Below, piece after piece: positions 29,370 through 55,568 of a stretch of DNA of 64,000 bases; position 1 is the stretch's first letter, and each line of letters begins with the position of its first letter. Origin of the DNA: Bugula neritina. Its lineage: Eukaryota; Animalia; Bryozoa. The notes beneath the pieces are model-generated. The model ran no database searches. It saw only the letters and a list, made by a program, of their open reading frames with translations, and was not told the DNA's origin. The position numbers were made by a program, and so were the translations under genes. The stretch is taken from positions 8,526,741 through 8,590,740 of the forward strand of contig OZ037768.1 in the NCBI GenBank assembly GCA_964035545.1. The letters are read 5' to 3'.

Positions 29370-32300
29370 TTAGCTATAAAATCCCATCAACCTCTTGTCG
29401 TGAGGATCAAATGGACTCTTCAAGTGTGCTGTGGCATCTAGGAGTTGTCCCATCCTATCTATTTGGTAGTTGCCTGCAAAATAGCACAAAATCTTAGGTA
29501 TTAAAATAGCAGAATACAAAATGAAACAAATTTATGTATTTAAGGAAATAGAATCAGGTGCCCAAAACTGGACATGTCTTGCATTGGTTTAAAGTCGTAT
29601 TCTTCTAAAACCATTAGCTCTTCATGACACGACAGAACGCCTTAAGCATAGGAGATATTAGCAACTGCTCCTATTATTGATAAAATACTTACATGACGAC
29701 TTTGAAGTGGACAATGTTCAACAACTCATGCATTGCTGAAATTTATTACTTCCTTGTTTTTCAACACAAAACTGAGCTTTCTAGTTTTATCAGTAATAAG
29801 AGACATAAGCTAGTAACACAAAAAAATTAATCATAGGTAAACTTTTGATAAACTATCTTCTGTTTGTGGTTAAATGATGACATTATGCAATCTATGGATG
29901 AACTTATTTCTGTTTTGTTTAACAAAATTTCATGGAAGAGAAAATTTTTAGTGAATACCTAGACACCTGTATGAACATCCGAAGGCTTTCTTTGGCAGCA
30001 AGAAAAGTTTGCTTCATTATGTTAAGATGCTTCAACCATTTGCAAATAAAAATATGTGACAAGTCTAAATACCTACCAGACATGATGAACTCTTTATCTA
30101 CAGGACCACCAGCTGGATTCTTTACATATCCAACCGCAATCTCTTTATCCAAAGCAAATGCAAACTCCGCCCTCCGAATATAACCAACTGCTTCCCCATT
30201 TCTATATATTGTTTCTAGTCCGTGCAGAGCCAAGTTTCTACATCAAATATATTTTACATCAGCAACCAATGAAAACACACAGACTTGTTTACTTTGAACT
30301 AAATATGCAACATGAACTACACGGTACATCAAAACTAAACACAACAATGTATAGAATGTGCTAGAAGAATATAAAGTTGACAGACTTACTGATCAAGTGT
30401 GAAACACACAAGACGTTTCTGTATACCACTAGCCTTATACTCTTCAACTGCTTGTCTTCCAACGAATGGTATATCTGTTTTAAGTTTACATGTGAAGGTC
30501 AAGTCAGCCTCTAGTGGGGAGTCGTCTGATCTGATATCAGAGTGCCACAAATGGTAGCCTAGAATTCCAATAAATAGCTTGAGGTCAAAAATATTTATAT
30601 AAATATAAGGTAATGAAGCAAATGAAGCAAAGATTTTTTTTTGAAATGAATTTTTAATCAATACAGTAGTCTATTTCCCAGCTAATTTAATTTAATTTAG
30701 TTTCAATCTTTTCTATCTGATGTTCTCCATAATACATTTAACTAAAAAAATAAATGTCAACAAAATAGAAGCATATATTTAAATACTGAATTTACAAGTG
30801 ACGTGAAAATTTGCATTACTACAATGATAATCTTACCTTTTTCTATGCTAAGTGAATCTAATGCACGGTAGCCAGAGTTTCTTAGCCCGAATTCTTTACC
30901 AACTTCTCTTACGACATTATAGATGTCTTGCGCTGCAGAGTTTGAGGCATGCAGTTCCCACCCCAACTCTCCAATAAAACTAACTCTCATTGCTCTCACT
31001 ACATGCCCACCAATAGTTACGAGCTGCAAAAACACACAGTTTTTACAACCAGTTGCTTCAGATCAGAAATAGTCTCACGAATCATCAGTAACAGTGCAAT
31101 AGAAGAGATGTGTTCATTGTCATTCAATTGTTTATTACCTGGTGTGTTGAGAATGGAAAAGATTCGTTAGAGAAATCAGTTTGAGGGCAAAGCTTGGATA
31201 GAAGTCCGCGGCTACAAGTATATTTAATAAAATAATTTTTATATAAACACAACACCCATACCAACACACACCCATACCAACACACACGCACACACCCATA
31301 CCAACACACACGCACACACCCATACCAACACACACCCATACCAACACACACGCACACACCCATACCAACACACACGCACACACCCATACCAACACACACC
31401 CATACCAACACACACGCACACACCCATACCAACACACACGCACACACTCATACCCACGCATGCACGCATATATTTAACTGATGACACTACAGTTGTTGAT
31501 CTGTTTTAGCAATGTGTTCAGATGGTCAGCACATCACACCTATTTTTTGTGTTCAGCTGTGAATTGATTTCATTGGCTATTGCCCGAGTGTTGATTGGCT
31601 AAGTTTCTTTACATGTTGCGTGTGAGCGCTACTAACCAGGAATATTTTATTAATGTCTTGATCTCAAATAGTACTTTATATATTTGGCTAAATAGTGTTA
31701 GTAAATTATACTATTTGTATCACAAGAAAAGCAGAAAATACTGAACTGCATTCTCATCAGTTAGGACATTAAATTCTTATCAGCACACTTCTTAGAGCTA
31801 ATAGTAATGCTTAATAGTATGAGCTTCATACCTCTTTGGTCCTTGAATACTCAACAGAATCATATCATGAGACAAATCTTTTACTTGACAGTCCAACTTT
31901 TCTTGTGCAATAATATTCGTTATTCTAGATTTGAAATATGGGGCATATCTTCCACCAGTAGCTGCATAGTAACTTCTACCTTTGAAAACAGATTAGGCAA
32001 ACAGCTGCAAAATTGTATAATAATAATGGTTTATGGGTTTGAGAAAACCAAATATTATATTTCTGAAATATGCTTGAAACACCTAATGCAAAATTTGGTT
32101 TGTTGCATAAAAACTAAAAATCAATTATTATGATCTCAATAGTACAATGGAGGTTTTTCATGAATGAAATAGCTGACCAGCAAAGGTTTTCCAACATTGG
32201 GAATTTTCAGTCTATTTAAAAAATAATCAGTATATGACTACAACAATGAATATATGCATACAATGGCTGAAATTGAAGGTGAGCAGAAAATAATGACACA

Positions 32301-35300
32301 ATAATCAGTTTTAATTTTAGGTATACACAGAAAAGTTACTTACCTTCAACACCACACAAAGCCTGAGGACCATCATCTTCAACTACACTAACTGTGAGGT
32401 CACTCTCAATACCACCCAACTTGTTAAGCATACAAGTATAGGTGGTACTTCCTAAAATCAAAACATTCCAATTTCAATCATTACATTCTCAAAGAGAAAT
32501 AAATGAGAAGAACGTAAATTCCATAAATAAACAGGGTTAATAAGTTGCCCCACTTGCCATAAGAAATAATTATCTTACAATCACTTATAACACACAAGTT
32601 ATACCTGGATGTTTGTCCATGTTGTTACTAAATATCCATTCCGCAGCCTTTGTAGCATCAGGTCCACACAAGTAAAGTTTTCCAAAGTAGGACATGTTAA
32701 ACATGTTCACATTATTCCGTGCATTTAAACACTCTTCACCAATCTATATATGGACAAGGGGAAACAATCTGCCTTTAAACAATTGGTACACAACAAGTGG
32801 CAAGGACAATGTCTAATTTCTTACATTTTATTTTTAAGAAACCTTCTCAGATAGGCTAGTGCATGAAAAGTAAAGGGCTTACATCTCTAGTGAATAATTA
32901 TACTCTAAACTAAACCCTGGTTGAATCATGAATGACCGAAAGATTTTAAAGTTTTACCAAAAAACCTATGTTTAGCCACTGATCATATTTAAAACTGCCA
33001 TGGACTCAAATTGAAAACTCTAAATCTGAAAATCAATTTCGCAATTTACCAGAACCTACTAGATGTCAACTCACTATGTTATGATGTGCAGGGTGATCAA
33101 AAGTATAATCCATGGTTAGCTTTTCTGCATACGGATGTGGGTTGTTTTTGACATGCCCGTATTCTCCTTCATAATCGTATAGAAGAGGCTATAACATAAT
33201 GTTAATAGCCTGTAAAAACAACTATATAAAAGCATGATGTAAAATAAATATAAAAAAGCTCAACGAAGCGTTTTCAGGAAGAGAAAAGCCTTGAAGCCTG
33301 CAGTACTTTTTTGTATTTAAAAAACTTTGTGGTTCTACACTGCAAGATAAAATTCCACAAAGAAAATAGACAAGAGTGCTAAAAATAGTAATATCATGTT
33401 TTTATACTCTTTCATATTTCTTGTTTGATGCCAACATTTCTGCATTCCATCTTTAATAGCTATCAAATGTTATAACAGGAGAAATTTGATGCCACAATCT
33501 AAAAAGAAACTACCAAAACTGCCAATAACTAAAAATACAAATTCTACGGTTACTGAATTTTAGTCCGCAAAGCATAGTACTTTGAATATTTTAAGACAGA
33601 TTGTAACTTATACTCACAGATGTAACATTTCCAACATCAAACCAGCCAGGCCTTTCCCAACCACCCTTTGACTGATACACGCATCCATCTTTCAATAACG
33701 TCTAAAAATTTATAGTTTTATTAACTATTAGATACTAAATTTAAATTTACAATAATTTTCAAAAGAATTTCCAGATATTAATGGCGCCCTACCTCATACA
33801 AGGCGTCTCTTACACCAGGTCGTCCAGCTAAAGATTCATCATGCCGGTAAAGCATTGAGTATTTTTTAACAAAACTTTCATGCGCTGTTTCTCTCAGCCA
33901 CTTCTTGTTTCCTAAAAGTTTTTCATTAAACCTCCTGAAACAGAAATTGTGACCTCTCTAATAAAATCAAAATGAAGTCAATACAGTTGCAAATAGTTTG
34001 CAAAAGGTGGCTTGCCTATCGAACACATACAGGTATTCATATACATTATACAACAAAGGTATTTGTGTCGCACTTAGCTCAGGGTAACACGCGTTTCCCT
34101 GAAGTTTTATGCAACATGTACAGCAAAAATTTTACTGTAACAAACAAATTTAAATACACATACTCAAATCTGTCAATGCACTAGTAAAAACACTGAATCA
34201 AGCTCAAAGTTAAAAGTCTTGAAAAGATGGGTGTATGTGAATTGTGAATTAACATACCACTTTCAGTCTTTAAAACCAAAACATACTAAATCATTCCTCA
34301 TGCAATGCACACAGCTTGAATGAACTACACCTAAGACTTTCCATCTTTTCTTTTCTGTAGCCCACTCAAGTATCTAAATTATATTTAAAAAGAAACCCCT
34401 GACTGAGGAATTTGAAACTTGCCTTGCATCGTATGTAACCATATCCAGCTCTGGTTCTCCTCTGATAACCCATTGAGCTATCATCTTACCACACCCACCT
34501 GATAACATGGCTCCTCCGCTGTTCATGGTGTGACCATGAAACAGTCCAGATATGTAAGGATCTGGACCAATGATCGGCTTGCCATCAGCACTGAATGACT
34601 CTGCAATAGAAAAACAAACCACCCTGTCAAAGCTTTATATATATATTTGAATGGCAACAATAAATATTTTTTGATAAAATACTTTGTGGTTAATGATATC
34701 AACTTAATTTTTATGAAATGTTTAGACTTCCCTTTCTTTACTAAAATTGAAGAAGTCAAAATCTGGTAGGATTACACAACTCCAAAGTATATGAAATATT
34801 TTAGAGTATACTTTTGATTTTTATTAATATTTTAATGATGTTTAGATTTGTTTCTAAACTGTTAGCCCTGAAAATTTGTTACTGAAAACTGCCTGAGTAT
34901 ACTTCTGAATGCTTTAAATACTGAAGCATCACTTTTATATATAAGACTATAAGCTGAATTATTGTATTAGTAGAAGATAAATTAATTAGAGACTTGTTTA
35001 CTACATACCAGGTCCAGAAACTGTTGACCTTATTCCAACCTTCGAAATGTCAGGGACTCGCTTACAAGCATTTTCAACGATATCACTTATAGCCTCCCAG
35101 TTTAAATCAAAAAGTCCAAAAGAAAAATCTTTCGCCACCTAAAATTAAAAACTAATTTTCAACGCAATGAAGACTTTCAATCACATTGAATAATAAATCT
35201 CTAAGAAAATCACAGACAAACTTATATCATGACTAAAGCAAGTTTTGTCAACAAAAACAACATCAAAATTGTTGAAAAAACAAGTTGAGAATTGTGTTTT

Positions 35301-38300
35301 ATCTACATAACATTAATTTCTCATAGCATCTCACTAAATGCATCTCTATTTTACACATATTATAATCAGTTTGTGGAGAATATTAAATTACAAAACCAAC
35401 ATTTGGCAACTCTCCAAAATATGCTCTGGGAATATGACCAATGACTTAGCTTGAACATTTTACTGCTGCTATGAACTAATGCTTATATAACACAGAATCA
35501 AAAACTGCTGCTATGAACTGCACCACTCTTATGTAACACAGAAATATAAACTTGAATTGCTCACTCCGTTCTCTAAGAAAACAGGTCGTGTCTCAAATCC
35601 CCCGACTTGAAGAACGTCTCCTTGCGCCTTCAGATAAAAAGAATGTTCGTGATCTCTAACATTAGGCATACCTCTCACACCTTCTATAGCCTCAGTTACT
35701 ACATAGGAGTGTTCAAACGACAGCTGGGGTATGTTCATTTCAAAAGACTTCAGTATGTGAGGAGTCCAGCAACCTATCAGAAAAGAATATTTAGAATCAC
35801 TGTTATAACAAATGCAACGAATTCAATTTTTGCTCAATATTTTGCTCTGAAGGTGACACCTTTCATCCTGAAATGCAGTATCAAAATTTACAACTTTTTT
35901 ACAGCAGTAAGTTTGTAGAGGCATTGACTAATGTCTGGACATAGAACCCTTACTAAACTAAAGAACTACGCCATGTATAAAGCATATTTTCAGACAGACA
36001 ACATGTGTTTTGAATTTTTTTACAGTTATATGCCCAAAGTTGAACTTGCATGTTGCTGGTATGGCATGAGTTCTCAACTAGGTGAGTTAATTGTACTATA
36101 AACACATTTTTGAGTTTATGATGAATATTTTAGTATAATTATAACATATTATTATAATATAAACCTCCACAAATGACAACATTGTCCGTCTCAATTCTTC
36201 CTTTTGATGTATTTACTGCTTTGACCCGTTTTCTCCCCATGGAATCAACACCAGTTTCAATTTCTATTACTTCACAATTTGTGATTGTCTGCAAGAGAAT
36301 ATAAGTATTTCATTTAATACTAGCTGAGTTTGTATAAATGTATGTACAGCTGCTAGCAGGGATAGCAAAACACAGTGTTCCCTTCATAGCTTACGGATTC
36401 CATAGGTCATGAGAAGGGCTTGGGCCCAGTTTGTGGCTTATTTATGTGTATATGGGGACAAAATCTAATGGATCCATGAGTTAAATCTAGTATTATACCA
36501 TGTCACGAGTTGAAGGTTCAGGACCCGTAGCTTAGTGAGATACGGATAGAGCACTGTAAAAATATAAAGTATAGATATTGAAATATTCATTAATAACTAA
36601 TTTTGTTTAATTATTCCTAAACTAAAATAAGTAAACACCACACTTTTTTATTCGTAGCCAGCTTTGATTTATTAAGATATATTTTGCAAAGCCTGGAACT
36701 TCAGTAAGAACGGTATACCACCACAGTAACAATAATTCATGTATAAAGGCAGTTATCTGAGCAGAAAATTAGAATTACAAGCAAAGCTGTGAACAAAGAA
36801 AAAAATGAAGAATAAATATGGTGGAAAGACGGTCACCTGAGCACCGTTGAGTTTAGCAGCTCTAGAGAGAGCAGTACAGTACCCAGCAGGGTCAATGTGA
36901 CCGTCAGTTGGAGAGTAAAGGGCTCCGACTAGATCATCCTTATTCATTATTGGGTAGAGTTTCTGTGCCTCGTCTGGAGTTAGAATGTGTGACTCAATCC
37001 CCATGCACTCACCAAACTGAAACATACAAACACAGACAGTCAAACAAAGCTAACCATTGAGCTTGGTATATAAATTTTCAGCTATGTATTTGCTCTAAAC
37101 TCTAATAAATAATCCTAGCTTGACCTATCAAACAAAACAGTTACACTAAACCCAAAGAATAAATGAATTAAAAACCTAAACCAAGTCAAAAGTTTTCATT
37201 GCATCAACAACAAAATAGCTATTCATTGTGGCTATAAGTTTACAATATTCAACGATATACATTAGATTGCAACTTGGTAATATAGTTAATCATTTTTAAA
37301 GACATGACGTAATAATTAGCCTTTGTACAAGACACTTGCAGCTTTCAGTCTTTTAAACTCTTCTATCCTCTGTTTGGTACATCCTAAGAAAAGTCCCCCA
37401 TTCATTGTAAACCCAGAGTTGACACCTGTTTCTTCTTCTATGGTAAACATGATGTCTCTGGTGATATTACTCAGCCACAAGTCTGTCTCGTCTGCTCTCA
37501 GTCTCCATAGCATACCTACAGACAGGAACAGCCTCTGAACCAGGAAATACTAAAGGAACTCTGCTACCTGGCAAATTGCTACACAAATACTATTACAGTT
37601 ATGAACTGCATATTGTAAAATTATAGTAAAATCATCTTATTTGTTCACTTCACTGTAGGCACTTTGGCACAGCGTGTCATAATTTTAACCATCATCTTAA
37701 TAAAATCAATAGACTGAAATATACAGACAGCTGAAAAAACTCTGCCAGACAAAATTTATACATTAAAGAGTAGGTATAAAAGAAAAGGCTAAAAATCTAC
37801 TCAAATTAATCAGCTAGCGCTAAGCTATTCCAAATAAAAAATAAAACTGTAAAATATTGTATAAGCAGTCGACCAAAAATCTATAAAAGTGACTAAATAG
37901 CCTTTGGTTGACATTTACTAAACCAGTTTAGATATTGAAAAGTTTCATATATTGAAAAATTCAAAATTCATCAAGTTCTAATTTATAACCTACCAGCTGT
38001 GTGCCATGATGTGCCAGCTGTGAGTTGGTCCTTCTCAACCAACACAGAGTTCGGCAACCCAAGTTTACTCAAGTGGTAGATGGTACTACAGCCCACAGTA
38101 CCACCTCCAACTACTACAGCATCTGCTCTGCTTGGAACTGAGGCTACATTATCTGAGTTTACATCTTTCAGAGTTCTGTCAAACAGAAATGAATTCTAAA
38201 GGCGTAACACTAAAGGACTTAAAGTTGAGTTGGAGTTGTTTTTTCTATTATAAGCACTTTTTGGTGAGTATATCATATCTTCCAGGAAAAATATATAATC

Positions 38301-40413
38301 TGTATAGTTTACTTTAAAGCATAAGCAAATTTTTCTAAATTCTACAAGTTCAATCATAAGGCGACACAACATTGTTGGATGGAGCTTTTCTGAACTTTCA
38401 CAGTGGTAGTTAAGTGAGAACTATTATTCCGTGACAGGATTACTACCAGGAAAATGGGCCTACTAATGCCACAGCTTGTCACACCACCACATCTTTATAT
38501 TAAACTTTTACAGTATTATCTTGCAAGTTGCTACATACTTACTACTAAACTAAACAGCTCGCAGCAAAAATAAAATATAAAATCCTTGATACTGCGTTCA
38601 GCAACCCGCTTCCATGCAGTACTGAAGTCTGCTTATATAGGTGACCTAGAAGGAGCTCAGTCATTATTCATGGGTCATGCTTCGGTGCACATCCCAGGCA
38701 AGCGATGCGCAGTAAACGACCGGAAACAATATTATAGCTAGGCTATGCAAGCCATCTAAGATTCAAAGGTTCATTGCTGAAAGATTCGAGTTTATAGAAA
38801 TATTCAAATAAAGGTTGGGGAATAAGGAAAAGCTGTCAGCTTATATAAAAATATATTTATTTGACTAGCCTACACATGCATTGTGCTGCCTGTTTGACAA
38901 TGATCTTTTATCTCTAATCTAACTTCTTAATAAATATAACCATGCTTCTATCACACAGAGCCCCTTTTTATAATAAGAAGATAAGTAAAACAGAAAGGGA
39001 GAAAAACCACATTAATGATTACAATCCCAGTTTGTCATTTATGTTTAGTTAAAGTTATAGCCTATAGGCCATAGGGCATGTAAAATAGATACTTCACAAA
39101 TTTAATCATTTCTGTCAAAAAATTTAATTACTGCTAAAAGCTTCATTTCCATTTATTGGGTTAGCTTATCTATAAAATGGGAGAGGTGAGGTCTTTTGTA
39201 GACCCTATAAATTATAAAAACAAGACCTAGCACTCTCATATAATATAATATGCAGGGGCCGATTTACCACACATAACATAGACTATAGACTATAGAATGT
39301 AACAATGGACAATTACCTTTAGTAACTGCGCATATAAAAACACTGGATATAAAAAAAACAGACAGACCTATAACTAGCAGACCTTGCTAAACATAAAATC
39401 CTATTTCCAAATTTAAAATAGTTGGTAGAAAGTTGATTGGGTCAGTAATGAGTAGTAGGCCTATACTGGAGCTTATCAATGGTCTACTGCATGCTACTTA
39501 ACAGTATCAAAATGATCACTAAACTAACAAACTAGCTTGCAGTAATATAGTAGCTGACCGTAGTTGTACAACATACATATAACAGCTTAGAGCAGCATCT
39601 GATTTTATTTATTCTGGCTCTAAAATAGTAATGTTGCAATAGGTAGTAATCATTTAGTTTAAAAATGCGATCTTTAAATCTTTAAATGAACTTGCAGTAA
39701 AACCCATAATTATTATATCTCTGCACATCTTGCAAAATTAAATTCAGCAAACTGTTCAAAAAGGGATGTTTTTTGGAACTGAAGCTGACATCTTCAATCA
39801 TGCACAATATTGATATTGAATCTCAGCTTTCTGAATATTAAGCAGGACACTAGTTACTAGTTAGGTACTTTAGATAATAATATATTATACTAATAGTAAT
39901 TTATGAATGATGTTTTATCCTTAAGACTAACTATGAATATAGAGTAACATTTTAAAATATAATACTAAGAGTTACATTCAGCAACCTACTCAATATCAAG
40001 TCTATAATTATAGTAAGATAAAGTCATTTATCTGTACGGATTGATTACATAATAATATAAAGAGACTTATGAGTATAAAGTTAAACTATAAATAAGTACA
40101 ATGCTGAATAATAATCATAGTGTCAGTGTGGATAACTGGAACTATACTATTATTAATGTTAGTAACAACTAATGTGGCAAGCCCGCGTATAAACAGGCAG
40201 CACCAAGTACCATTAAAACATAGTTACATGTGATACTCAGACTATGGGTGTGAGTTGTGACAGTCACAGTTGATGTTGACACAGAAATTGAAAGTGGATG
40301 ACTTACTTGTAAGGGACTTCTCGCTTCTCAACTGCCACAAACCTTGCTTGAGTAAATTTATTAGATTTGATTGTCTGCTTCAATAAATTTAGATTACTTG
40401 TTAACCGATGCAT
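29370..40413 (-). CDS. SARDH: Sarcosine dehydrogenase-like, mitochondrial (copy B), inverted paralog, about 19 exons
   Basis: ATG at 40413 ([36 protein letters not shown]). Same intron positions and phases as copy A (approximate exons 40413-40307, 38177-37996, 37515-37340, 37016-36837, 36288-36165, 35774-35566, 35138-35009, 34600-34423, 33934-33793, 33701-33618, 33188-33075, 32743-32605, 32451-32344, 31979-31831, 31211-31139, 31024-30838, 30558-30390, 30237-30077, 29473-29370). GTSWHTAG retained; ends [15 protein letters not shown]. No stops or frameshifts seen. Confidence 0.9.
31249..31460. repeat. Minisatellite of ACACCCATACCAACAC units with optional ACGCACAC spacers, in a SARDH-B intron
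   Basis: About 9-10 copies of the CCCATACCAAC core in alternating long and short units. Confidence 0.92.
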
Positions 40414-40613: not shown

Positions 40614-40968
40614 TATAATATTATTACGCTGGTTGCTTGACTGATTATAATTTATATGGAATCATTGCGAATTCCTTGTGACAGCATCAAATTTAATAGT
40701 CATAGACTCATGCTGATTCTTCATTGCCCTGATGATGGTCACCAGTATCAGTTATCATGATTATGATACTGAGACTGAAATTATCATTATGTTAATACTT
40801 TTAGCCATACTTATAGCTATAATACTTAGTCATTACAGCTATAATTGAAAATGTTTACTATCATGATTGTGGTATTGCTAAACCCCCAATAATATAATTA
40901 TTATAATAATGATGAACCCCAGCATTGGTAGAACAGGGTACTAAGACCCACACAAAAGTACAAGGTAA

Positions 40969-42187
<1,219 letters not shown>

Positions 42188-44268
42188 TGCGAGCATATAC
42201 AAAGATAAAGTTTAAATTTACAAACACAACTCCATAATATAGTTCTACTAGTTAATTGTAATTATGCCAGTGTTGGGAGGACCTAACTATGAATGCAAGT
42301 TCACACAGGCATCTTTATCTTGTTAACCAAAATAAACTAGAAAATAGTTGAAAATAAACCTTGCCCAATATCATAACTCCTGTGCATGCTACAATACTGC
42401 AGGTTTATCTGGCCTTCAGTCAATAATGCAACTAGGCACTTCACATGCATAATAGTAGAGTAGTAGACTGTTGCTGTGATAAAACTATGATTGATATTGC
42501 TTTTCCTGCGATGTTAATATGTGCATAGTCCTAGTTTATACCAGATGAGAATTCAAGACATAAGTATTAAAGTCTTGTTGTGCACCATTATGTCATTATT
42601 TTGGTGGAGAGTGTTAAATCTGTTTGCAAAAAGGTTGATACAGAGTAATTATATGTGACTTTGACATTGTTTAAACTTTAGAGGATTTGATAAAGCTACC
42701 AGCAACAAAGTTTTTTCCTTTTTTCTAATTACTAAAATGTTTTTTGTTACCATGAACATTTTGAACTTAAATTAGCATGAGTGATTATCGGGCTGAATGT
42801 GATGACATAAAATTATTAACTTATCCAATCATATTGCTTCTAAATTTCTATACTTTCCACTGAAAAATTGCATTCAGTGAAAAGTAAGTCTAGGAGTTGA
42901 ATGCCATGTTTTGAGTCAAGTTATTTTACATAAATTTTGCATTGTGGAAGAAATGCAATGTTGAGCACCATAATTATGGTTGGTTAAATAGTAAAGTAGA
43001 TAGTTCTGTTTTTAATCTGTGGGAACACTTGAAATCGATGCTTTGCTAGTTTCAAATTTGTGATGATCCTGCGATGCATGTTCCAGTTATTAGTCTGGTT
43101 ACAGAGCATACCATTTTTTAAATATACAAAATGCAATGTTCAGAAAAGTCTTTTATTGTAGGTATCTATATCAGTTCCTTTTGTGTAAGCTTTTATGCTC
43201 CTAAAAGTTTCTCAATTTAGCTTGCCAGCTGTGTCTTTTGGCTATTTCCTGCTTAGCAGTTTGCAAAAGTTGTATAAATAAAAATTTGTCATTTGATGCA
43301 AGAAGTTTAACTTTATAACTTGTACATTTCCTCCACAGAATTAAATCACAACCTGTAAAACCTCCTCGAGTGGAATTTGAAGAGTGCAAGAAAGGGGTAA
43401 TTTACAGAGTTATCTTTTCTGAAACTTAGATGGGATAACTCTAGGGTTAAAAAATCTAGCGTTTCCTGCAAAGTGAAAGTTCATAGCGGGCAAAGTGAAA
43501 GCTAGCTTTCAGCATATTGACAATATTAAAATGCTTTACTATTAAATTAGGTTTATATATCATTTATATTTATATTTGTGCAATATAATGATCGTGAAAA
43601 TAAAGGCAGATTTAGTCATTCTGATTCCTAGTGGTATCGTTATGATCGGTTATCAATATGAATAGTCAATAGTCATTCAGTTTCACAGTCATAGTCATAG
43701 TGATAGTGGTACTCTTACTGATAGTGATAGTCACACTCATACTGATACTCAGCCTTATGTTTCATAGTCATACTCATAGTGGTCATAGTGGTAGTAATAG
43801 TCTATATGAGTGTAACTCTAAATTTATAAGTAGCAATATTATAATAATGCTTATAGTTATAGTAATAACTATACCAAGTATAAGACTAAGTAGTTAGGCA
43901 GCATGACTATAGGTATTAGTATAAGCATCACCACTACTAGTACTAGCAGTAATAGCAGCAGTAACAGTAGTACTAGTAGTACATTTAGTAAGAGTAGTTT
44001 AGAGTTATATTTGTATAGCCCTAACTTGTAGTTTGTATTACTAGTATAGCAACGCTACTACTTAATTTATTATATTTATATTAAGTCTAACATTTTTTAC
44101 TAATGCTATTGCTAATGAGTGATGAGTACATACCAGTCATAGAGTAAATTTGATGACCAAATCGTGTTCCGTGTTGTTTATTCATTATAATTTATATCTA
44201 TGTAATAATCATTACTTGTGTTGGCATTAGAAATAGATTAGTATTTGTTTTTAGAATAAGACTAAAAG

Positions 44269-47013: not shown

Positions 47014-50000
47014 CTAGTTGCAAGTATTTCCCTGATGTCCAATTACATTTTTTCTTATATTTATGTCATTTCGTCTATAAAACTCTGTGTTTACTTTAGC
47101 TACTCTCACATGTTTTCGATCTGGATGATCCACATGCATATGAATTTTCTGGCCATATATTGAAGATGCCAATGTAGGTACGTCCTTCACTTTTTCCTAA
47201 AATAATTGATGAAATATGTAATTTTTCATCACTAAACATGACAAATGAATGCAAGCAACAAGAGTATATTAATTTTTAGCCTATTAATCACCTCATCATG
47301 CACATGCAATCCTCTTGATTTAGCATGTTCTCTGTCGCACCTGTGCACATACTGATTGTATCCTTGCTCTTGATTAAATATCCTGTCAAATTCACAAGTA
47401 CCATATTTCTCCTGAAACAAATTTTAAGTAATACTGCATTAGAATATTATATAACCTTGCAAATGGCTAAATTACAAACTGTATGCAGGCAAAAGATATG
47501 AATAGCTCAAGCAATTTTTAGCTTGATTACCACAAATCTACATGTGGACAATACCAACTATGTTATTTTCAATTGCATATGCCAGTTTTATAAAATACAT
47601 TGGAACAAAAATTCAAACTAAAGCCTTTTCAAAAGGTATAAATTATAGGTGCCCTTTAGCAAATTAAATTAGCAATTAAACATGTTGCATCTATAGAAAA
47701 TAACTAATTACAAAATGAAAAGCATGTACACAGATGGTATGAATTTAGCGTAATTACAGTATTGACTTTACAGGGAAAATATATATCCACATAGAAAAAG
47801 TTTCAATATTATCATATAAATATTGTGGTGGCTCGTGGAGCTACCAGCAACACAATACGCAAGGTTGCGTATTGACCCGGAACAATGTATTAGCCAATTA
47901 GCTAGGCTGTTTTATGAGAGTAGTAGCAGCTTCGCGCTACTAGCTCAGTTGAGGATAGTGCTGTAAATTAAATAGACGTGCGTATCATTGCTGTTGTACA
48001 TTAGATTTTATTATGTATTCTTGTATTAAAATATAACGATATCTACTCGACTTATCTCGGTGAAGTTTCTCTAGCGATAAATAGACTCTCTTGGTGGCAC
48101 ATCAACCCTAAATCTGAAAATCATAACAGTGGTGGCAGCAGTGGGATAGTGTACATCAAAGATGGAGACTGAAAATGCTAGAATGCAACCACCCCCAGTA
48201 GAAGGTGAGCGTAGAAATGCTGTTAATCCTGTAAATCGTGAGGCAGAAGAAGCTTATAGACATTGCTTGAAAGCTCCCACCTTTACTGGGTCGGAAGATG
48301 TCGAACAATTTATACAAGAATTTAGAGAGGTAATGGAGGTTGCTCAATGGCCGCATAGAGTGGCCCTTATCCAATTGCGGAGAGCGGTGACGGAACAAGC
48401 CAAGCCGTACGGAGTGGGAACGGACGTAAACGGAATACTGGCTGCGCTGCGGGCCCGTTTTGGCATCTCCGCAATAGACGCCAGGACCAAGCTGGAGAGA
48501 TTGTGCCGCAACCCGCGGACCTCGCTGCAAGAACATGCCGCGACGGTGAAGAAGTTGGCGCAGATTGCATACAGCGATCTGCCAGCGCAACACCAAGAGC
48601 GTTACACCTACGACGCCTTTGTCCAGTCACTAAACGACCTGGGCTTACACCATCAACTACGAGTTAAAGGGATAACCAGAATAGAGGATGCCCTGAAGGC
48701 TGGAGAAGCTTACCTGTTGGCTACCCAAATGCATCAAGCACGACGGAACCCACCAGTAGTTGGAGTCAGCGCTGCCAGGGCTACAACAAGCCCCGAAGCC
48801 CCCCCGCTAGAAGCCGAAGTGGACCGCATGGTAGAGATGCTGGGACAGCTGGTAACAATTCTGGCTGGCGCCGGCCCCAGTCAGGCCCTGCGGTTGCCCT
48901 CAACACCTGCGGGGCCAAACTGGAGTAGTGCTGGTCGAGACCATGGACAGCAAGGACGACCCCAATACCAGGGGGCGTTAAACTGTCACGGCCCGCGGAC
49001 GCTCTCCCTCCCCGCGGGCCGCAACTAAAGGAGTATGGTGGGAAACGCCGTCGTCTGTCCGTACGGACACGACGGAACACTCCACCCGAGTGGCAGGTAC
49101 CACGCAGGACTAGTAGGCCCGCACAACGGCCAAGTACCTTCTCCCTGCCACTCGCTAACCGGTTTCACCGGTTACCTCGGGAAGAGGAGCCCGCCACTGA
49201 AATGGAGCCAGAAGGCCCAGTGGAGAGGCCCGAACCCCGCCGGCACCAACCTCGCCGCCGGAAGCCCCGTAAACCACGGGTGAAACCCCCGCCGTCCTGT
49301 CAACCCAGGACAACACATGCGGGGGGGGGTGAAAGTACAACCACATGGAGAGAGCTATTTCCTACCCGGAAAGGTGGCCGGCAACGCCGTCACTTTCCTG
49401 CTCGACTCCGGTTGTACTACCAACCTTCTCAGTCGTAGAGTATTTGAGGCACTGCCCCGCCGGGACAGGGATAGAGTACGACCGTATACTGGAGAACATG
49501 GCACCCTGGCAGACGGGTCATGTATCCCCTTTTATGGTATTATCGAGCTCCCTGGGCGTGTCCGAGATCAGGCTGTACAAGAGACCTTTATCATAGGTCA
49601 ACTGGAGGAAGATGCTATCCTCGGCATGCCCTTCTTGAAGCAACACCAGTGCCGAATCGACTTTAGTAAGTCGGTGGTGCTGATGGGCGGGCGAGAACTC
49701 GCCTGTGTGGATAAGTTTGGGCGTCCTCTGGTGGGCGGTGTTCAGGTAGTTCGAAACTGCACCGTACCCGGACGCTCCAGAGCTACTATCCACTGCCGAG
49801 TGAACAGCAACCGGATAGCCAGGCTCGGGGTCGTTGAAGGCGCGCACGAAAGGATCCAACTCGCCAGTAGTTTAAACCGACTAACTGAGCGAGGGGAGGT
49901 CTTAGTGCAGTGTGTCAACCCCTTTACCGAGCCCATTGAGCTCCCAGCTGGGTCAATGCTGGGCCGGTTCCACTCCGTCCAGGAAGAGGACGTGGGCCCG

Positions 50001-53000
50001 TCGCTGGGTGACGCGACGGAGGCACCCCCTCGACACCCTATTCAGGGACGAGGGGCAGTCCCAACACATCTCCGGGAGTTATACGAAACAGCCAGTGGCG
50101 GCTGCGCGAGTAACAGAGAACGCCAAGCTATGGCTAAGTTACTACGCGACTACGGTGATGTGTTCAGCAGCGGAGAGCATGACGTGGGGCTGACTGGAAT
50201 TGTCAGACACGAAATACCGCTGACTGCAGGGACAGTTCCTGTCCGGCAGCCCACACGCAGGCTGGGGCCGGAGAAAGAGAAGGAGGTTAGCCGACAAGTA
50301 CGGGATCTTCTGGACCGGGGACTGATAGAGCCCGCCCATAGTGCGTGGAGCTCGCCAGTCGTACTGGTCCGGAAGAAAGACGGCAGTTGGCGGTTCTGTG
50401 TGGATTACCGCAAACTCAATAGCGTAACCATACAGGACGCCTACCCTCTACCTCGTATTGACGAGTCATTGGACGCCCTAGCCGGCAGCAAGTACTTCAG
50501 TACGTTAGACTTGCTAAGCGGCTATTGGCAGGTTCCTCTGAGTCCCGACGCCCAAGAGAAAGCGACGTTTATCACACGGGACGGTTTGTGGAAGTGGAAG
50601 GTGCTGCCCTTCGGGTTAACCTCCGCCCCAGCCACCTTCCAGAGGCTGATGGAACAAGTCCTTAGCGGACTCCATTGGAAGACACTGCTGGTCTACCTCG
50701 ATGATGTCATCGTAATCTCTCCAGACTTCGAGACACATGTCAGTCGTCTGCAGGAGGTTTTCGAGAGACTCCGAGGTGCCGGTCTCAAGCTCAAACCTTC
50801 CAAGTGCGCTCTATTGCAGCCGGAGGTCAAGTACCTGGGGCACGTTGTCGGTCGAAACGGCGTGGCAACGGATCCCGAAAAGGTACGGGCGGTAGAAGAC
50901 TGGGTCACCCCCCAAGACTTGACCGGACTCCGAGCTTTCTTGGGGCTGGTAGGGTATTACAGACAATACATACCAGACTTTGCGGGCATAGCCCAGCCGT
51001 TAAACCGGCTCACCGCAAAGGGAGTGACGTGGCAGTGGACCCCAGTCGAACAAGAAGCGTTCGACCGCCTCAAGGGTTGCCTACTAACGGCGCCCATCTT
51101 GGCCTACCCAGACCCCACTCTGGAGTACATCCTCGACACGGACGCCAGTGACCAAAATGTTGGCGCTGTGCTGTCACAAGTGCAGGAAGGCCGAGAGGTA
51201 GTAGTAGCCTACTACAGCAAGTCTCTCTCACCCGCTGAACGAAATTACTGCACTACCCGCAAGGAGCTGCTGGCAGTAATCAAGTCAGTGAAGCACTTCA
51301 GACCATACCTATACGGCAGGAAGTTCCGGCTGCGTACGGACCATGCCTCGCTGATCTGGTTGTGCAAGAGAGCAGAGCCCTCTAGTCAGGTCGCCCGGTG
51401 GCTCGAAATCCTAGCTGAATTCTCATACCGGATCGAACATCGACCGGGCAAGAGACACAGCAACGCGGATGGGCTGAGTCGCCGACCTGACGGAGGTTGC
51501 AAACAGTGTCTCAACATCGAGAGGAGGGATGGAGGTCCCCCGCGATGCGAGTTGGAGACGCTGGCTCACCACGGAGCACCGTTTGACTGGGACCAGGGTC
51601 AACTCAGGCAGGGAGTTGATGAGTCCCCGGAGGATGTGAAAAACCTCCGCGCCAACCCTGTACTGGCCGGTAATGTTCGCGAGCTGAAGAAGCTCCAAGA
51701 AGAACTGCCTGGAGTCGTGGCAGACATATATCGGGCCAAAAGGGAAGGGCGACGACCCAGCGAGGAACGCATACGACAGGGATGCGCCGAGTTCCGGCTA
51801 TACTGTCAGCGTTGGGACTCGCTGCGGATCGGGCAGGATGGGTTACTAACCATCTGCCTAGCTGCCAGCGGCAGACACCCGGAAAGGAAGAGGGTAGTCT
51901 GCCCCACGGTCATCCGCCGTGAGTTGATTTGGGATACTCACAAACAGGCCCACGCAGGGGTCAAGCGAGTGATATCCAAATTACGACTCCGGTGGTATTG
52001 GCCGCAGATGGAGCGTGACGTCCGGCTCAGAGTCAAACAGTGTGAGATCTGCCAGGCCAGTAAGCATAGCCGCCCCCCTGGTGAAGCAGGACGGCGGAGG
52101 CTATACGCTGGTAGGCCCTGGCAAGTAGTCGCTGTAGACCTGGTCGGACCCATGCCCCTGACCCCCAGAGGCAATAATTGGATCCTAGTACTAACCGACC
52201 ACTTTACTAGGTGGGCGGATGCTCTGGCTATCCCAGATGCATCAGCCCCAACAGTGGCCAGGGCGCTAGACCAACATGTATTCTGTTATTTTGGGCTTCC
52301 CGAACAGATACACTCTGATCAAGGCGCTCAATTCCAGTCTCAACTGATGAGCGACCTTTGCCACCTCTGGGGAGTAAATCAGAGCAGGACCACCCCCTAC
52401 CACCCTCAAGGTAACGGGGTGGTGGAGCGCAACAACCGGATGCTAGGTGATGCGCTCCGGAGTCTCCTCCTTGGACGAGGTCAAGAGGAATGGGATACGG
52501 TGTTGCCGCAAGTCATGCGTGCATATCGTAGCACCCCACACACCAGTACTGGTGAGACCCCAAACCTCTTGATGCTCGGGAGAGAGACTCGTGTCCCTGA
52601 CCATCTCACCTATCACGTTCCAGAGCAAGACAACTCGGTTCACGAGTATGCCAATGAACTAGTGGAACGGATGAAGGCCGCACACGACATACTGCGTCAA
52701 CAGCAGTGGAAGGTGCGGCACGAAGATTCCGATGAACCACCTCTCTATCAAACGGGAGATAAGGTGTGGATGGTCAATTACCGTAGGCGTCGCGGACAGG
52801 CTGATAAACTGAAGCCTAAGTTCGTAGGCCCCTACGTGGTCGTCGAGGCTATGCCCAATCATACGTACAAGATTGAGCGCTCAGGACAGGTGTCTATCCA
52901 GAATGAGTCTCGCTTGAAACCGTATTGGGCTAGCCCCGACGGAGTGGGAGAAGCCCCCCCGTTGTTAGAGCCCAGGAGGCAGACAACGACGCGCGGGCGA

Positions 53001-55568
53001 CGGCGGCATGGACCTGAATACGAAGTGGTCATACCGCGGGAGGAAAACTTGGTGAGAGAGGAGCGGCAGCTTTTGTCAACAGAAGCATGTCCGCCACTGC
53101 CGAGTCTAATTCCATCACTTCCAGAAACCGAGCCGGTTCCGGAAGTGCAAACCCCCACGGAGGGAGGGGCTCCATCCGGAGAACAAGAAGAGGTGACCGC
53201 TAACGGTGAAGTAGAGACGCCATTAGAGGCCCCTACTAACGAACCGGTAAGCGTGTCACCCCCCCTAGAAAGGGGACAGCGTACGAGGAAACCCCCGCCA
53301 TATTTAAAAGACTTCGTATGTGACTGCATTAGAAGCGGCGCACATGAAAGTCTAGGGGAAAACCGTACGATAAAATGTTGGAGTTGTGAACCCCACGCAA
53401 ATATCAACTTTTGCGAGGGCGGAATAGTGGGAGGAATTAATGCGCGTAAAGCAAATAGTTCCGACCTCGTGCCTCAGAAACGATGCTCAGCCTTTTCTTA
53501 TGCTGACATCGCCAAAGGCAGACGTATCTCACAACCAGCTCCAACCTTACCAAGAACGTTGAGTATGGACATTAATACCGAGTTCCCAGGTAAGCCAGTA
53601 TAAGTCTTGTATTCCTATTCATGGAAACGGGCTCGATGCCAGTAAATTCTGAACTAATTCAGCAGATTGAATCAGAATTACTGGGAACCACGTTTCATGT
53701 GAATGACGATGAAGACACTGTAATGGCCGACGGTCTGTTAGACCTGGAGCTAGACACTGTTCTTGGTCAGTCCACACATGATTCATCGGTTCCTCGAGTG
53801 CATTCTAAAAGCTGTGACTCTCAGGCTAGCAACGGTCGGCAGTCACTAGAATTATGTTGTAAAGATCCACCGCGATCTAACAATAATTCTACTTTTGTAG
53901 ACACACTCGCGCCCGTCTCTCCGGGCATGCCTTCTCTAGAGATGGCGTGGGACCCAGAGCCGGCCCCAACAACTTCTACAACCAGGCAACTGCCACCCCA
54001 GTTGGAAGCAACCTCCAACTGGATTACCCCTGCCACAGAGAGAGAAATCAGGACCCATCAAGGAGGTGAGAGTAATCGTGAATGCAACCTCTGCCAGCAG
54101 CGATTCACAACCCACCGTAGACTAAAAGTACACTTGCCGCAGCACTACATCACCACTTTCTGCCCTTGCGGAGAATATAGCTACAATCGTGATTACCTAT
54201 TGCGGCACCAACGTACTATGCAGTGTTATCAAGGGCGTGTCTATGAAGTAGACGAATCATCCTATCCTGCCTTTCTCAACGCCATCAAACCACTCATCAC
54301 TGACTCAGCTCGGCTATCTCGCCTGGAGCAAGGCTTCCCTTCCCCGCGACCCATCATCTCTGGAGCCGCAGATAAACCTACACAGTCTACTAACTCTCCA
54401 CCTCACAGTCCTCTACGCATGCCGCATACCTTTCCTCGTGTCGTACTACAGAGGGTAGACACAAATGCGTATACACTCCCTCCTCCCCTTCCATCCTCAG
54501 AGCGGAAAAGACACAGACAGCCGACTTCCTCTCGCTCGTCCCCCTGGGCCCGCAACCTACGTGAAGTAAAAGCTAGGGCACACGACTTGGAGCAAGAAGT
54601 GTACAGACTGGCCCCACGGGTGCAGGCTGCATCCAGTGAACTCAAATATTTACAGGAGTCTATTAAACGCATGAAGCGTGCGGCCCGCAGTTAACTTGAG
54701 TCTACCTACAACTCCATACTACTCAATCCCCTACCTCTCTGTGGCATTCCCTACCGTAATGGTGGCACGTACTCTACATGTAGATAGGACCTTCTCTTGC
54801 TTATTACTTAGTGTGCACGTTATATATACCTGTATATTTTTATCAGTTGTTGTTTTTTTTGTATATACTTTTATACTGTTCTCTTACCCCCCCACAACGA
54901 AGTATACGTTTTTTTATGTGAATTTTATTTTATCAGAAAGTGGGCTTTCTGCTGGAGGGGGCAGTGTGGTGGCTCGTGGAGCTACCAGCAACACAATATG
55001 CAAGGTTGCGTATTGACCCGGAACAATGTATTAGCCAATTAGCTAGGCTGTTTTATGAGAGTAGTAGCAGCTTCGCGCTACTAGCTCAGTTGAGGATAGT
55101 GCTGTAAATTAAATAGACGTGCGTATCATTGCTGTTGTACATTAGATTTTATTATGTATTCTTGTATTAAAATATAACGATATCTACTCGACTTATCTCG
55201 GTGAAGTTTCTCTAGCGATAAATAGACTCTCTTGGTGGCACATCAACCCTAAATCTGAAAATCATAACAATATACAGGTTTTATTTAGGCTGCCTAAAAT
55301 TGCATAATTTTAACTATTAGCTAATAAATTAAAACAGTTTTAATTTCTTGACATCACTAAAAACAAAATTACAATATTTCTTTTTATTTTAAAGTTTTGT
55401 AATACTTACTTGTCTCTCTACATTGAATGCATTTCTGTTTTTATCGATAGGCCTACTTGGTGGTACAAATGCATTTGCAGATACCTCACAAGGCCTTCCA
55501 TGCAAAAGAAACTCATCTGTATCAGTTTTAACATAAATAATATCTTCTAGTTGAGCTCCTCGTGCCAT
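47014..55568 (-). CDS. CFAP90: Cilia- and flagella-associated protein 90 (C5orf49); exons 55568-55410, 47411-47292, 47196-47014; 153 aa
   Basis: FDRIF..EQGYNQYVHRCDREHAKSRGLHVHDEE..VPTLASSIYG..EFYRRNDI matches the C5orf49 family pattern (HRDDREHAKSLGLHV..SSVYG..FYRKNDI). Canonical phase-0 GT-AG introns; X-box upstream. Confidence 0.88.
47824..48128 (+). repeat. 5' LTR (305 bp)
   Basis: TGTGGTGGCTC...TCATAACA; identical to the 3' LTR except C47858 versus T54999. Confidence 0.97.
48130..48147 (+). other. Primer binding site complementary to the tRNA-Leu 3' end
   Basis: TGGTGGCAGCAGTGGGAT lies 1 nt after the LTR and complements the animal tRNA-Leu(AAG/UAG) 3' end ATCCCAC(C/T)GCTGCCA-CCA. Confidence 0.8.
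48162..49028 (+). CDS. gag: Gag (288 aa)
   Basis: First ORF after the PBS; capsid-like segments APTFTGSEDVEQFIQEF, ALRARFG, AFVQSL; no intact CCHC knuckle. Confidence 0.85.
   Translation: METENARMQPPPVEGERRNAVNPVNREAEEAYRHCLKAPTFTGSEDVEQFIQEFREVMEVAQWPHRVALIQLRRAVTEQAKPYGVGTDVNGILAALRARFGISAIDARTKLERLCRNPRTSLQEHAATVKKLAQIAYSDLPAQHQERYTYDAFVQSLNDLGLHHQLRVKGITRIEDALKAGEAYLLATQMHQARRNPPVVGVSAARATTSPEAPPLEAEVDRMVEMLGQLVTILAGAGPSQALRLPSTPAGPNWSSAGRDHGQQGRPQYQGALNCHGPRTLSLPAGRN
49317..53603 (+). CDS. pol: Pol polyprotein (protease, RT, RNase H, integrase); true entry probably via a frameshift at about 48977
   Basis: FLLDSG protease; WRFCVDYRKLN, LPFGL and YLDD RT; TDAS and ELLA RNase H; H..AH...CEIC zinc motif, DLVGP/DQG/VVER DDE core and GPY integrase. 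Confidence 0.96.
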   Translation: MRGGVKVQPHGESYFLPGKVAGNAVTFLLDSGCTTNLLSRRVFEALPRRDRDRVRPYTGEHGTLADGSCIPFYGIIELPGRVRDQAVQETFIIGQLEEDAILGMPFLKQHQCRIDFSKSVVLMGGRELACVDKFGRPLVGGVQVVRNCTVPGRSRATIHCRVNSNRIARLGVVEGAHERIQLASSLNRLTERGEVLVQCVNPFTEPIELPAGSMLGRFHSVQEEDVGPSLGDATEAPPRHPIQGRGAVPTHLRELYETASGGCASNRERQAMAKLLRDYGDVFSSGEHDVGLTGIVRHEIPLTAGTVPVRQPTRRLGPEKEKEVSRQVRDLLDRGLIEPAHSAWSSPVVLVRKKDGSWRFCVDYRKLNSVTIQDAYPLPRIDESLDALAGSKYFSTLDLLSGYWQVPLSPDAQEKATFITRDGLWKWKVLPFGLTSAPATFQRLMEQVLSGLHWKTLLVYLDDVIVISPDFETHVSRLQEVFERLRGAGLKLKPSKCALLQPEVKYLGHVVGRNGVATDPEKVRAVEDWVTPQDLTGLRAFLGLVGYYRQYIPDFAGIAQPLNRLTAKGVTWQWTPVEQEAFDRLKGCLLTAPILAYPDPTLEYILDTDASDQNVGAVLSQVQEGREVVVAYYSKSLSPAERNYCTTRKELLAVIKSVKHFRPYLYGRKFRLRTDHASLIWLCKRAEPSSQVARWLEILAEFSYRIEHRPGKRHSNADGLSRRPDGGCKQCLNIERRDGGPPRCELETLAHHGAPFDWDQGQLRQGVDESPEDVKNLRANPVLAGNVRELKKLQEELPGVVADIYRAKREGRRPSEERIRQGCAEFRLYCQRWDSLRIGQDGLLTICLAASGRHPERKRVVCPTVIRRELIWDTHKQAHAGVKRVISKLRLRWYWPQMERDVRLRVKQCEICQASKHSRPPGEAGRRRLYAGRPWQVVAVDLVGPMPLTPRGNNWILVLTDHFTRWADALAIPDASAPTVARALDQHVFCYFGLPEQIHSDQGAQFQSQLMSDLCHLWGVNQSRTTPYHPQGNGVVERNNRMLGDALRSLLLGRGQEEWDTVLPQVMRAYRSTPHTSTGETPNLLMLGRETRVPDHLTYHVPEQDNSVHEYANELVERMKAAHDILRQQQWKVRHEDSDEPPLYQTGDKVWMVNYRRRRGQADKLKPKFVGPYVVVEAMPNHTYKIERSGQVSIQNESRLKPYWASPDGVGEAPPLLEPRRQTTTRGRRRHGPEYEVVIPREENLVREERQLLSTEACPPLPSLIPSLPETEPVPEVQTPTEGGAPSGEQEEVTANGEVETPLEAPTNEPVSVSPPLERGQRTRKPPPYLKDFVCDCIRSGAHESLGENRTIKCWSCEPHANINFCEGGIVGGINARKANSSDLVPQKRCSAFSYADIAKGRRISQPAPTLPRTLSMDINTEFPGKPV
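53621..54694 (+). CDS. Retrotransposon accessory ORF3 (357 aa): zinc-finger plus coiled-coil protein, not env
   Basis: Intact ORF 17 nt after the pol stop and inside the LTRs. CNLC-x12-H-x3-H C2H2 finger; second finger CPC-x12-H-x5-C; C-terminal heptad region; no signal peptide or TM. Confidence 0.82.
   Translation: METGSMPVNSELIQQIESELLGTTFHVNDDEDTVMADGLLDLELDTVLGQSTHDSSVPRVHSKSCDSQASNGRQSLELCCKDPPRSNNNSTFVDTLAPVSPGMPSLEMAWDPEPAPTTSTTRQLPPQLEATSNWITPATEREIRTHQGGESNRECNLCQQRFTTHRRLKVHLPQHYITTFCPCGEYSYNRDYLLRHQRTMQCYQGRVYEVDESSYPAFLNAIKPLITDSARLSRLEQGFPSPRPIISGAADKPTQSTNSPPHSPLRMPHTFPRVVLQRVDTNAYTLPPPLPSSERKRHRQPTSSRSSPWARNLREVKARAHDLEQEVYRLAPRVQAASSELKYLQESIKRMKRAARS
54954..54964 (+). other. 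Polypurine tract
   Basis: GGAGGGGGCAG immediately before the TG of the 3' LTR. Confidence 0.8.
54965..55269 (+). repeat. 3' LTR (305 bp)
   Basis: Direct repeat of 47824-48128. Confidence 0.97.

Follow-up and report, generated by a model that had tools for sequence, protein, structure and literature searches.

What might a third open reading frame (ORF) do for a Gypsy retrotransposon when it stands in the env slot and does not encode env? The question is raised by a stretch of 64,000 nucleotides of Bugula neritina DNA (contig OZ037768.1, positions 8,526,741 to 8,590,740 of the forward strand; hereafter the window), which holds a complete Ty3/Gypsy element at 47824–55269. Long terminal repeats (LTRs), target-site duplication, primer-binding site (PBS) and polypurine tract (PPT) are all present, and behind pol lies ORF3, in which an earlier note on this DNA had seen a transcription-factor-like protein. 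Our results show that ORF3 is a real gene under purifying selection. What is new here is its product, which appears from comparison with its relatives to be an unnamed and ancient zinc-finger/coiled-coil module, present either as a tail of integrase or as a free third ORF.

Purifying selection on ORF3

The element is young, with 1 mismatch in 305 bp between its two LTRs. ORF3 is uninterrupted and starts 17 nt past the pol stop, in a frame that differs from that of pol. This bears out the earlier observation of an intact 357-aa ORF between pol and the PPT (53621–54694).

In run X1, the summed depth over the element is ~28,000–174,000, against 88–119 on its flanks; this depth is not a copy number. 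The ORF3 bins (27,926–39,259) match the gag bins (31,119–38,045), which shows that sibling copies keep ORF3. Absence from siblings, one of the outcomes that would have spoken against the earlier proposal, was therefore not found. At a 10% share, 17 of the 20 ORF3 variants in X1 are synonymous where 24–31% would be expected (binomial p 2e-8 to 1e-6, values that overstate independence, as 15 of the 20 variants lie in codons 289–344 and are probably linked in subfamilies), and pN/pS is 0.06–0.08. No indel is listed within ORF3 at this share, the sole listed indel being located after the stop, and one 399-nt deletion occurs at flank-level depth. The excess of synonymous changes among copies led us to reject neutral decay of ORF3, another outcome that the earlier note had named as a refutation. 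Runs X2 and X3 contain only scattered pieces of the element (7 and 18 contigs, respectively).

Sequence features and predicted fold of the protein

The earlier note had described ORF3 as lacking a signal peptide, a transmembrane segment and a furin site. The highest 19-residue Kyte-Doolittle mean in ORF3 is 0.58, hence there is no hydrophobic segment that could span a membrane; the same scan is the basis for the absence of a signal peptide, for which a dedicated predictor was not run. The statement on the furin site needs amendment, because an RMKR (R-X-K-R) does occur at residues 350–353. Yet it lies at the extreme C-terminus of a protein without a hydrophobic segment, and is not of the env type. 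Like the earlier note, we rejected the env reading, on the basis of hydropathy, the lack of any Pfam env family and a predicted fold of fingers plus helix, and by these same measures ORF3 does not resemble an errantivirus-type env either.

The motifs that had been quoted stand where they were said to stand, with VNDDEDTV at 53699, CNLC at 54083, HLPQH at 54131, CPC at 54161, H196 at 54206, C202 at 54224–54226, ERKRHR at 54500 and LREVKA at 54557. The acidic N-terminus and the two C2H2-type fingers are indeed present. Residues 1–50 have a net charge of −12, and the LLD...VPYK motif of this N-terminus is retained in the wider clade. Finger 1 has the canonical C2H2 ligand spacing, whereas finger 2 departs from it. 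No Pfam family scores above its cut-off in ORF3 (zf-C2H2 reaches 15.6 bits against a cut-off of 25.2), and zf-C2H2_4 matches at only E ≤ 0.1 in 18 of 61 family members.

AlphaFold2 predicts that residues 113–249 fold as one compact domain (pLDDT 93, pTM 0.83). In the prediction for the full protein, the C-terminus forms a helix of 49 residues and the remainder is mostly disordered; the heptad segment noticed earlier is thus predicted as a coiled-coil helix. The modelled finger pair superposes on the DNA-bound pairs of Kaiso, ZBTB38, ZBTB20 and SALL4, so that the fingers are predicted to lie like a DNA-binding pair, in agreement with the earlier suggestion. Even the best superposition is weak (e.g., Kaiso, Z 3.5, rmsd 2.7 Å over 57 residues). 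The whole core domain has no match among solved (PDB) or viral (BFVD) structures, and the full-length VIA structure search returned generic long helices only. In the finger-1 helix, Arg or Lys occupies positions +2, +3 and +5 in most of 67 domains. Homodimer predictions, in which the alignment was not used, scored 0.02 and 0.03, which is evidence neither way.

An unnamed protein family

The protein search yielded 59 homologues of ORF3 among 1,880 candidates, at 35–74% identity, and 26 of the 58 closest share its start methionine. A profile search of 1.84 billion representatives extended this to 301 clusters (50% identity) at E ≤ 1e-3 and 126 at E ≤ 1e-10. Among the homologues, the fingers are the best conserved part (0.74) and the Pro/Ser linker the least (0.34). 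Across 44 diverse members, C158, H171, C181 and C183 are invariant, and W134, C155, H175, G184, H196, V210 and P244 are nearly so. Only 2 of the 73 members scanned have a Pfam match at E ≤ 0.001, both mainly C2H2, and a search of the ESM Atlas gave unnamed or generic C2H2 clusters. Judged by these searches, ORF3 is a member of a large family for which Pfam has no model.

Nor was ORF3 matched to an accessory family described before, an outcome that the earlier note had allowed for, by way of Pfam, the PDB, BFVD or the literature. A description of the domain was not found in the main texts searched; supplements, Repbase, Dfam and GyDB were outside the scope, and the domain may sit in one of these three databases as an unnamed ORF. 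The words 'zinc' and 'ORF3' are absent from the main text of a survey on Gypsy elements with env, in which Bryozoa are covered (PMC13524379). Likewise, the available text of a bryozoan genome paper contains neither 'zinc finger' nor 'Ty3', and describes bryozoan repeat libraries as scarce (PMC13326412).

A close-alignment search for related loci confirmed none in metagenome contigs (169 pattern matches) or viral contigs (50). A degenerate motif search gave 7 viral loci, 0 prokaryote genome loci and 1 metagenome locus (L008). None of the 7 viral loci scores against the family profile (best E 0.11).

An old module, fused to integrase or free

A search with the integrase half of pol found 153 proteins, the best 120 of which were examined for the domain. 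The two-finger domain is present in frame at the C-terminus of 36 of these 120 Pol relatives (E 2e-33 to 2e-9), a count of the fusions visible in protein sequence. By eye, a comparable pair of fingers can also be seen in two proteins outside this count (P0285 and P0303). Fused forms have a linker of 171–698 aa between integrase and the fingers (median 324), to be compared with an equivalent distance of 335 codons in the window, and in 29 of 36 this linker carries a net acidic charge. A heptad segment closes 22 of the 36 fused forms, against 1 of 36 control segments. Furthermore, integrase distances and finger distances are correlated (Spearman/Mantel r 0.67, 0 of 2000 permutations, n = 37): the module has long been inherited with the element.

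The metagenome locus L008 is a true relative. It carries the domain (34% identity over 94 aa) in an ORF that is open at its 5' end and stops shortly before a PPT and an LTR, and this LTR is followed by a near-identical PBS and a gag that is 39% identical to the window gag. Between the window and L008, the domain is therefore about as diverged as gag. In L008 (1–4530), the order is ORF3, PPT, one LTR, PBS, gag and the start of pol, which may represent two elements in tandem with a common LTR, a circle with one LTR or a collapse in the assembly.

These comparisons indicate that the two-finger and coiled-coil module is an old module of this Gypsy lineage and not a fresh capture from a host. In the clade of the window, the sequences suggest that the module split off from Pol as an ORF of its own. 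This would be in keeping with the seven Pol proteins nearest the window, which are without a fused domain. Weak similarity to a pol tail in N-terminally extended relatives of ORF3 was limited to 1 match (P0130, E 0.017). In four other proteins (P0219, P0238, P0251 and P0255) the Pol tail ends in a coiled-coil-like helix without a finger domain. Possibly, these lost the fingers while the helix stayed.

Related genes in bryozoan hosts

Twenty family members were looked up, and three clusters had an NCBI organism name. Three annotated bryozoan genes carry the module without integrase, namely XP_067940964.1 and XP_067944745.1 of Watersipora subatra and KAF6040922.1 of Bugula neritina. These gene models may be element remnants. 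By eye, P0162 and P0205 (proteins of W. subatra and B. neritina, respectively) seem to share an extra N-terminal segment before the fingers, which suggests an old orthologous host gene.

The presence of such genes could mean that ORF3 is itself a recently captured fragment of a host gene, carried as cargo without a role in the element, all the more so as one of the Watersipora genes is sister to the wider clade of the window (SH-aLRT 96). However, element-fused forms are found throughout the domain tree and the host genes at three separate places inside it. This tree was built by a quick method from 82 rows and 127 columns, is unrooted, and leaves out near-duplicate rows and domains covering <85 profile positions; an earlier tree of 71 rows placed the host genes in two places. 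Cargo would also sit badly with purifying selection among copies, with the co-divergence of fingers and integrase and with a domain as diverged as gag in L008. Selection, co-divergence and the nested position of the host genes led us to reject recent capture, which the earlier note had named as a possible refutation and which we regard as very improbable. Instead, the placement of the host genes suggests domestication from elements, the direction being unproven. Transposons would then be the likely source of some nuclear proteins of bryozoan hosts.

Expression and predicted splicing

Two predicted splice donors, one in gag (48205) and one just before the pol stop (53590), and a predicted acceptor inside ORF3 (53900) are all in phase 1. 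Hence, either predicted splice would be in frame and would keep the fingers and the coiled coil; agreement of both phases by chance is expected in ~1 in 9 cases. The donor at 53590 is a near-perfect match to the consensus, and the acceptor is the T-richest of 28 YAG sites in 53330–54090 and the sole one with a CTAAC branch motif. Residues at the acceptor site are YAG-compatible in 43 of 44 homologues, which are related and non-independent sequences, and the peptide over the acceptor is conserved though predicted to be disordered. Removal of the predicted 311-nt intron (53590–53900) would take out the pol stop and produce a Pol-ORF3 fusion. The first 93 codons of ORF3 are also conserved in the wider clade, so a full-length protein is likely made from its own ATG too.

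A search upstream of the ORF3 ATG for acceptors that would join the gag leader to it in frame gave none, and no programmed frameshift signal was seen by eye in the 10-nt overlap of the pol and ORF3 frames. In the 3' untranslated region (54835–54940), two T-rich AG sites resemble splice acceptors by eye, and splicing from the donor at 53590 to these sites would skip ORF3 entirely. In RNA run X4, 22 contigs are spread across gag, pol, ORF3 and LTR, at a depth <10, and the flanks have none; with a multicopy element, such contigs do not tell transcripts from DNA.

Candidate functions of ORF3

Palindromes of 10 bp are present in both LTRs examined. Their arm length is reached in 7 of 1000 dinucleotide shuffles for the window LTR and in 15 of 1000 for that of L008, and 3 of 183 segments of the flanks have one. 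The single mismatch between the two window LTRs falls within the palindrome at 47853–47874. The L008 LTR has four inverted repeats (a count reached in 2 of 1000 shuffles), and the six-base half-site of two of these repeats occurs 7 times in that LTR. These candidate dyad sites suggest a fit with a dimeric binder.

The earlier note had proposed a dimeric transactivator or an anti-silencing factor, a view that the present results support in part. We favour, with slightly less than even confidence, the reading that ORF3 encodes a nuclear DNA-binding regulator by which the element keeps its own LTR promoter active. The acidic-hydrophobic N-terminus, the basic finger helix, the basic patch, the coiled coil, the lone ORF, the lone host genes and the LTR dyads all point this way, and the conserved start of a stand-alone ORF speaks for a role that is independent of integrase. 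Translation would start at the ATG of ORF3 itself and/or use an RNA spliced in frame between the gag donor at 48205 and the acceptor at 53900. The protein would be taken into the nucleus by its basic patch, pair via its coiled coil and bind the LTR at the palindromes in its 5' part, where its acidic-hydrophobic patches might recruit co-activators or oppose silencing. In fused forms, here by way of the predicted 311-nt intron, the module would arrive with integrase at a new insertion. A bolder version, possible though rather unlikely, is an entire lineage of animal Gypsy elements with a sequence-specific transcription factor of its own, made up of a new two-finger domain and a coiled coil. This factor would reach every new insertion as an integrase tail and would also exist as a free spliced protein, would bind the LTR palindromes of its own element, thereby switching the new copy on, and would have been domesticated more than once in bryozoans.

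Several observations weigh against an LTR regulator. In finger 1, a hydrophobic residue mostly occupies position +6, and the inter-finger linker, though 5 residues long, is not TGEKP-like, so that canonical base reading is not assured. No match with Z ≥ 5 was found among 48,161 chains and Foldseek returned nothing at E ≤ 0.001 in the PDB or BFVD; moreover, a shared fold would not prove a shared function. The palindromes come from just two LTRs and differ in sequence, and hairpins in LTRs serve other uses. The splice sites match a consensus only, and the joint 53589–53901 is not listed in X1, whose contigs drop rare forms. The clustering of ORF3 variants noted above calls for caution as well. 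Finally, a targeting tail would explain the in-frame fusions to integrase (36 of 120 relatives) equally well or better.

These fusions, which the earlier note had missed, make chromodomain-like targeting appear a serious rival, though one that we still consider unlikely. ORF3 would then be a tethering tail of integrase, analogous to the chromovirus chromodomain, that binds DNA or chromatin and steers integration, and the fusion would be remade by splicing out 53590–53900, or the free protein would dock on integrase. Fused forms are spread across the whole domain tree, the spacing between integrase and fingers in the window is close to their median, and pol stays open for ~90 codons past its usual end motif, up to a strong donor that is phase-matched to the best acceptor. 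A chromodomain at the C-terminus of integrase is the hallmark of chromoviruses, according to the available text of PMC3605345. Against such a tail, the linkers in fused forms are mostly acidic and of very uneven length, the seven nearest Pols are not fused, and X1 lists no spliced joint. Moreover, ORF3 has retained an ATG in the clade of the window, together with a conserved N-terminal segment that would be lost with the predicted intron. The single insertion site (ATAT in an AT-rich flank) shows no preference. No chromodomain family is among the Pfam matches of pol and ORF3 at E ≤ 1, and the element does not class as a chromovirus on this count. Regulation of the LTR and a tail on integrase are not mutually exclusive.

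Alternatively, ORF3 might act on RNA, as do CERV of Cer1 and retroviral Rev, by binding unspliced genomic RNA and securing its export or the balance of spliced and unspliced forms. The strong predicted donors and acceptor would create just the problem that Rev-type proteins solve, and in close relatives of ORF3 the basic run is followed by an Arg/Ser/Pro-rich stretch that contains a Trp. CERV itself is described as a nuclear product of a spliced message, with a basic nuclear localisation signal, a leucine zipper and a Cys finger (available text of PMC10309623). However, its domains H, M and G and its C4-type finger, compared by description only, are unlike the two-finger domain (same source). 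The Arg/Ser stretch is weak in the window protein, an RNA role would leave the acidic N-terminus unexplained, and the finger pair resembles pairs bound to DNA. We therefore deem this explanation quite improbable. The module lends itself to test with the core domain and the LTR palindrome as one pair, and fused and split families as another.

Architecture of the element and its surroundings

Coordinates are collected in Table 1. The Pfam domains of pol follow the Gypsy order (protease, reverse transcriptase, RNase H, integrase), no Pfam family scores above its cut-off in gag, and the PBS is putatively of the tRNA-Leu type.

Table 1. Features of the Gypsy element and of ORF3, in positions of the window
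Feature	Position	Strand	Basis or remark
Left target-site duplication, ATAT	47820–47823	+	sequence
5' LTR, 305 bp, TG...CA	47824–48128	+	one mismatch against 3' LTR
Perfect 10-bp inverted repeat, 2-nt spacer, in 5' part of LTR; candidate dyad site	47853–47874	.	
PBS	48130–48147	+	sequence; a PBS with one base different follows the L008 LTR
gag, 288 aa	48162–49028	+	ORF; 39% identity over 150 aa with L008 gag
Predicted splice donor in gag; intron start 48205, phase 1, after 14 codons	48202–48210	+	consensus match only
pol frame (first ATG 49317): protease, reverse transcriptase, RNase H, integrase, then long tail	49284–53603	+	ORF, Pfam
Predicted splice donor just before pol stop; intron start 53590, phase 1	53587–53595	+	consensus match only
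ORF3, 357 aa: acidic N-terminus, two-finger domain, Pro/Ser/basic linker, coiled coil	53621–54694	+	
Acidic-hydrophobic N-terminal segment, residues 8–50, putatively activation-domain-like	53642–53770	+	
Predicted branch point, pyrimidine tract and acceptor inside ORF3, phase 1, codon 94	53877–53900	+	
Compact core domain, residues 121–245: Trp helix, finger 1, finger 2, VD strand, closing helices	53981–54355	+	AlphaFold2
Finger 1, C-x2-C-x12-H-x3-H	54083–54145	+	
Finger 2, C-x-C-x12-H-x5-C	54161–54226	+	in relatives, fourth ligand Cys or His, spacing varies
Basic patch, likely nuclear localisation signal	54500–54517	+	
49-residue C-terminal helix with heptad pattern, predicted coiled coil	54542–54688	+	
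PPT	54954–54964	+	sequence
3' LTR, 305 bp, TG...CA	54965–55269	+	LTR comparison
Right target-site duplication, ATAT	55270–55273	+	sequence

As regards the LTRs, pol and ORF3, the earlier note was right to describe the element as nearly mutation-free. The same cannot be said of the junction of gag and pol (49026–49435), where the two genes share one frame with two stops between them, the gag stop at 49028 and a second in-frame stop at 49281–49283. Only the third frame, open at 48929–49435, overlaps both genes, and its similarity to the N-terminal pol segment of L008 is not significant (E 0.9). A run of G lies near 49321. A lesion, an assembly error and an unusual form of recoding may each be the cause.

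Elsewhere in the window, a large inverted duplication (2855–13467 and 29376–40395) consists of 12 blocks of 96–522 bp with 69–96% identity in mirror order, which are probably exons of two paralogous genes facing each other. Pfam has no match at E ≤ 0.01 for an ORF piece within it (10803–11114). An open frame of 413 codons for an amino-acid transporter (17309–18550; Pfam Aa_trans, E 3e-85), with a probable upstream exon at 14144, is flanked by the two inverted paralogues and presumably resembles a vesicular GABA transporter. A short element with 50-bp inverted ends (5250–5399 and 5984–6040, 92% complementary, 691 nt apart) and internal repeats is probably a miniature inverted-repeat transposable element. 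Very long (CA)n microsatellites, one of ~1.2 kb, occupy 21334–21729 and 40901–42196.

Comparison with known systems

The module is a reminder that an ORF standing where env is expected may encode something else. Regulatory accessory proteins of invertebrate LTR retrotransposons have a precedent in CERV of the Caenorhabditis elegans element Cer1, which, as far as the available text of the paper goes, is required for the export of genomic RNA and not for transcription (PMC10309623). Like ORF3, CERV is a non-env protein of a regulatory type with a nuclear signal, a zipper or coiled coil, a Cys-rich finger and a spliced message, the latter being a prediction in our case. In contrast, CERV shares exons with gag and has domains H, M and G, a C4-type finger and a role in RNA export (PMC10309623, same text), whereas ORF3 has a tandem C2H2/C2HC pair, an acidic N-terminus and integrase-fused relatives. 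In bdelloid rotifers, non-env ORF3s of LTR retrotransposons are also family-specific, lie behind pol and are typically expressed from spliced messages. These are GDSL, DEDDy, CC and TM proteins, i.e., enzymes, membrane proteins or coiled-coil proteins, and the word 'zinc' is absent from the main text of that study (PMC5408684, in the text available).

Among accessory domains of Pol, chromodomains have been reviewed before (PMC6338049 and PMC3605345, available text). Like the chromovirus chromodomain, the module studied here would be a chromatin- or DNA-facing unit at the end of Pol that is inherited with its lineage (PMC3605345, same text). It differs in its fold, its acidic linker of 171–698 aa, its coiled coil and its existence as a separate ORF in the window. 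Chromodomains have a role in targeting, and if the ORF3 module shared that role, it would represent a second kind of targeting tail beside the chromodomain.

The tandem C2H2 proteins Kaiso (ZBTB33), ZBTB38 and SALL4 resemble ORF3 in the spacing of finger 1 and in the predicted placement of the pair (2.4–2.9 Å over 50–57 residues). Unlike these proteins, ORF3 has only two fingers, the second with C-x-C and a variable fourth ligand, and extra helices wrap both into one 125-residue domain that has no full-length match and stays below the Pfam cut-offs.

To our knowledge, simple LTR retrotransposons are thought to take all their transcription factors from the host. Complex retroviruses have transactivators of their own, such as Tas of foamy viruses and Tat of HIV, and the VANC proteins of plant transposons are anti-silencers. 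The role that we propose for ORF3 is likewise one on the element's own promoter or chromatin, although searches of BFVD and the PDB gave no match in sequence or in fold. In having a selected accessory gene besides gag, pol and env, the B. neritina element resembles complex retroelements. If the LTR-regulator reading is correct, a module that moves between an integrase tail and a free ORF would show a way for retroelements to acquire a regulator like Tat or Tas.

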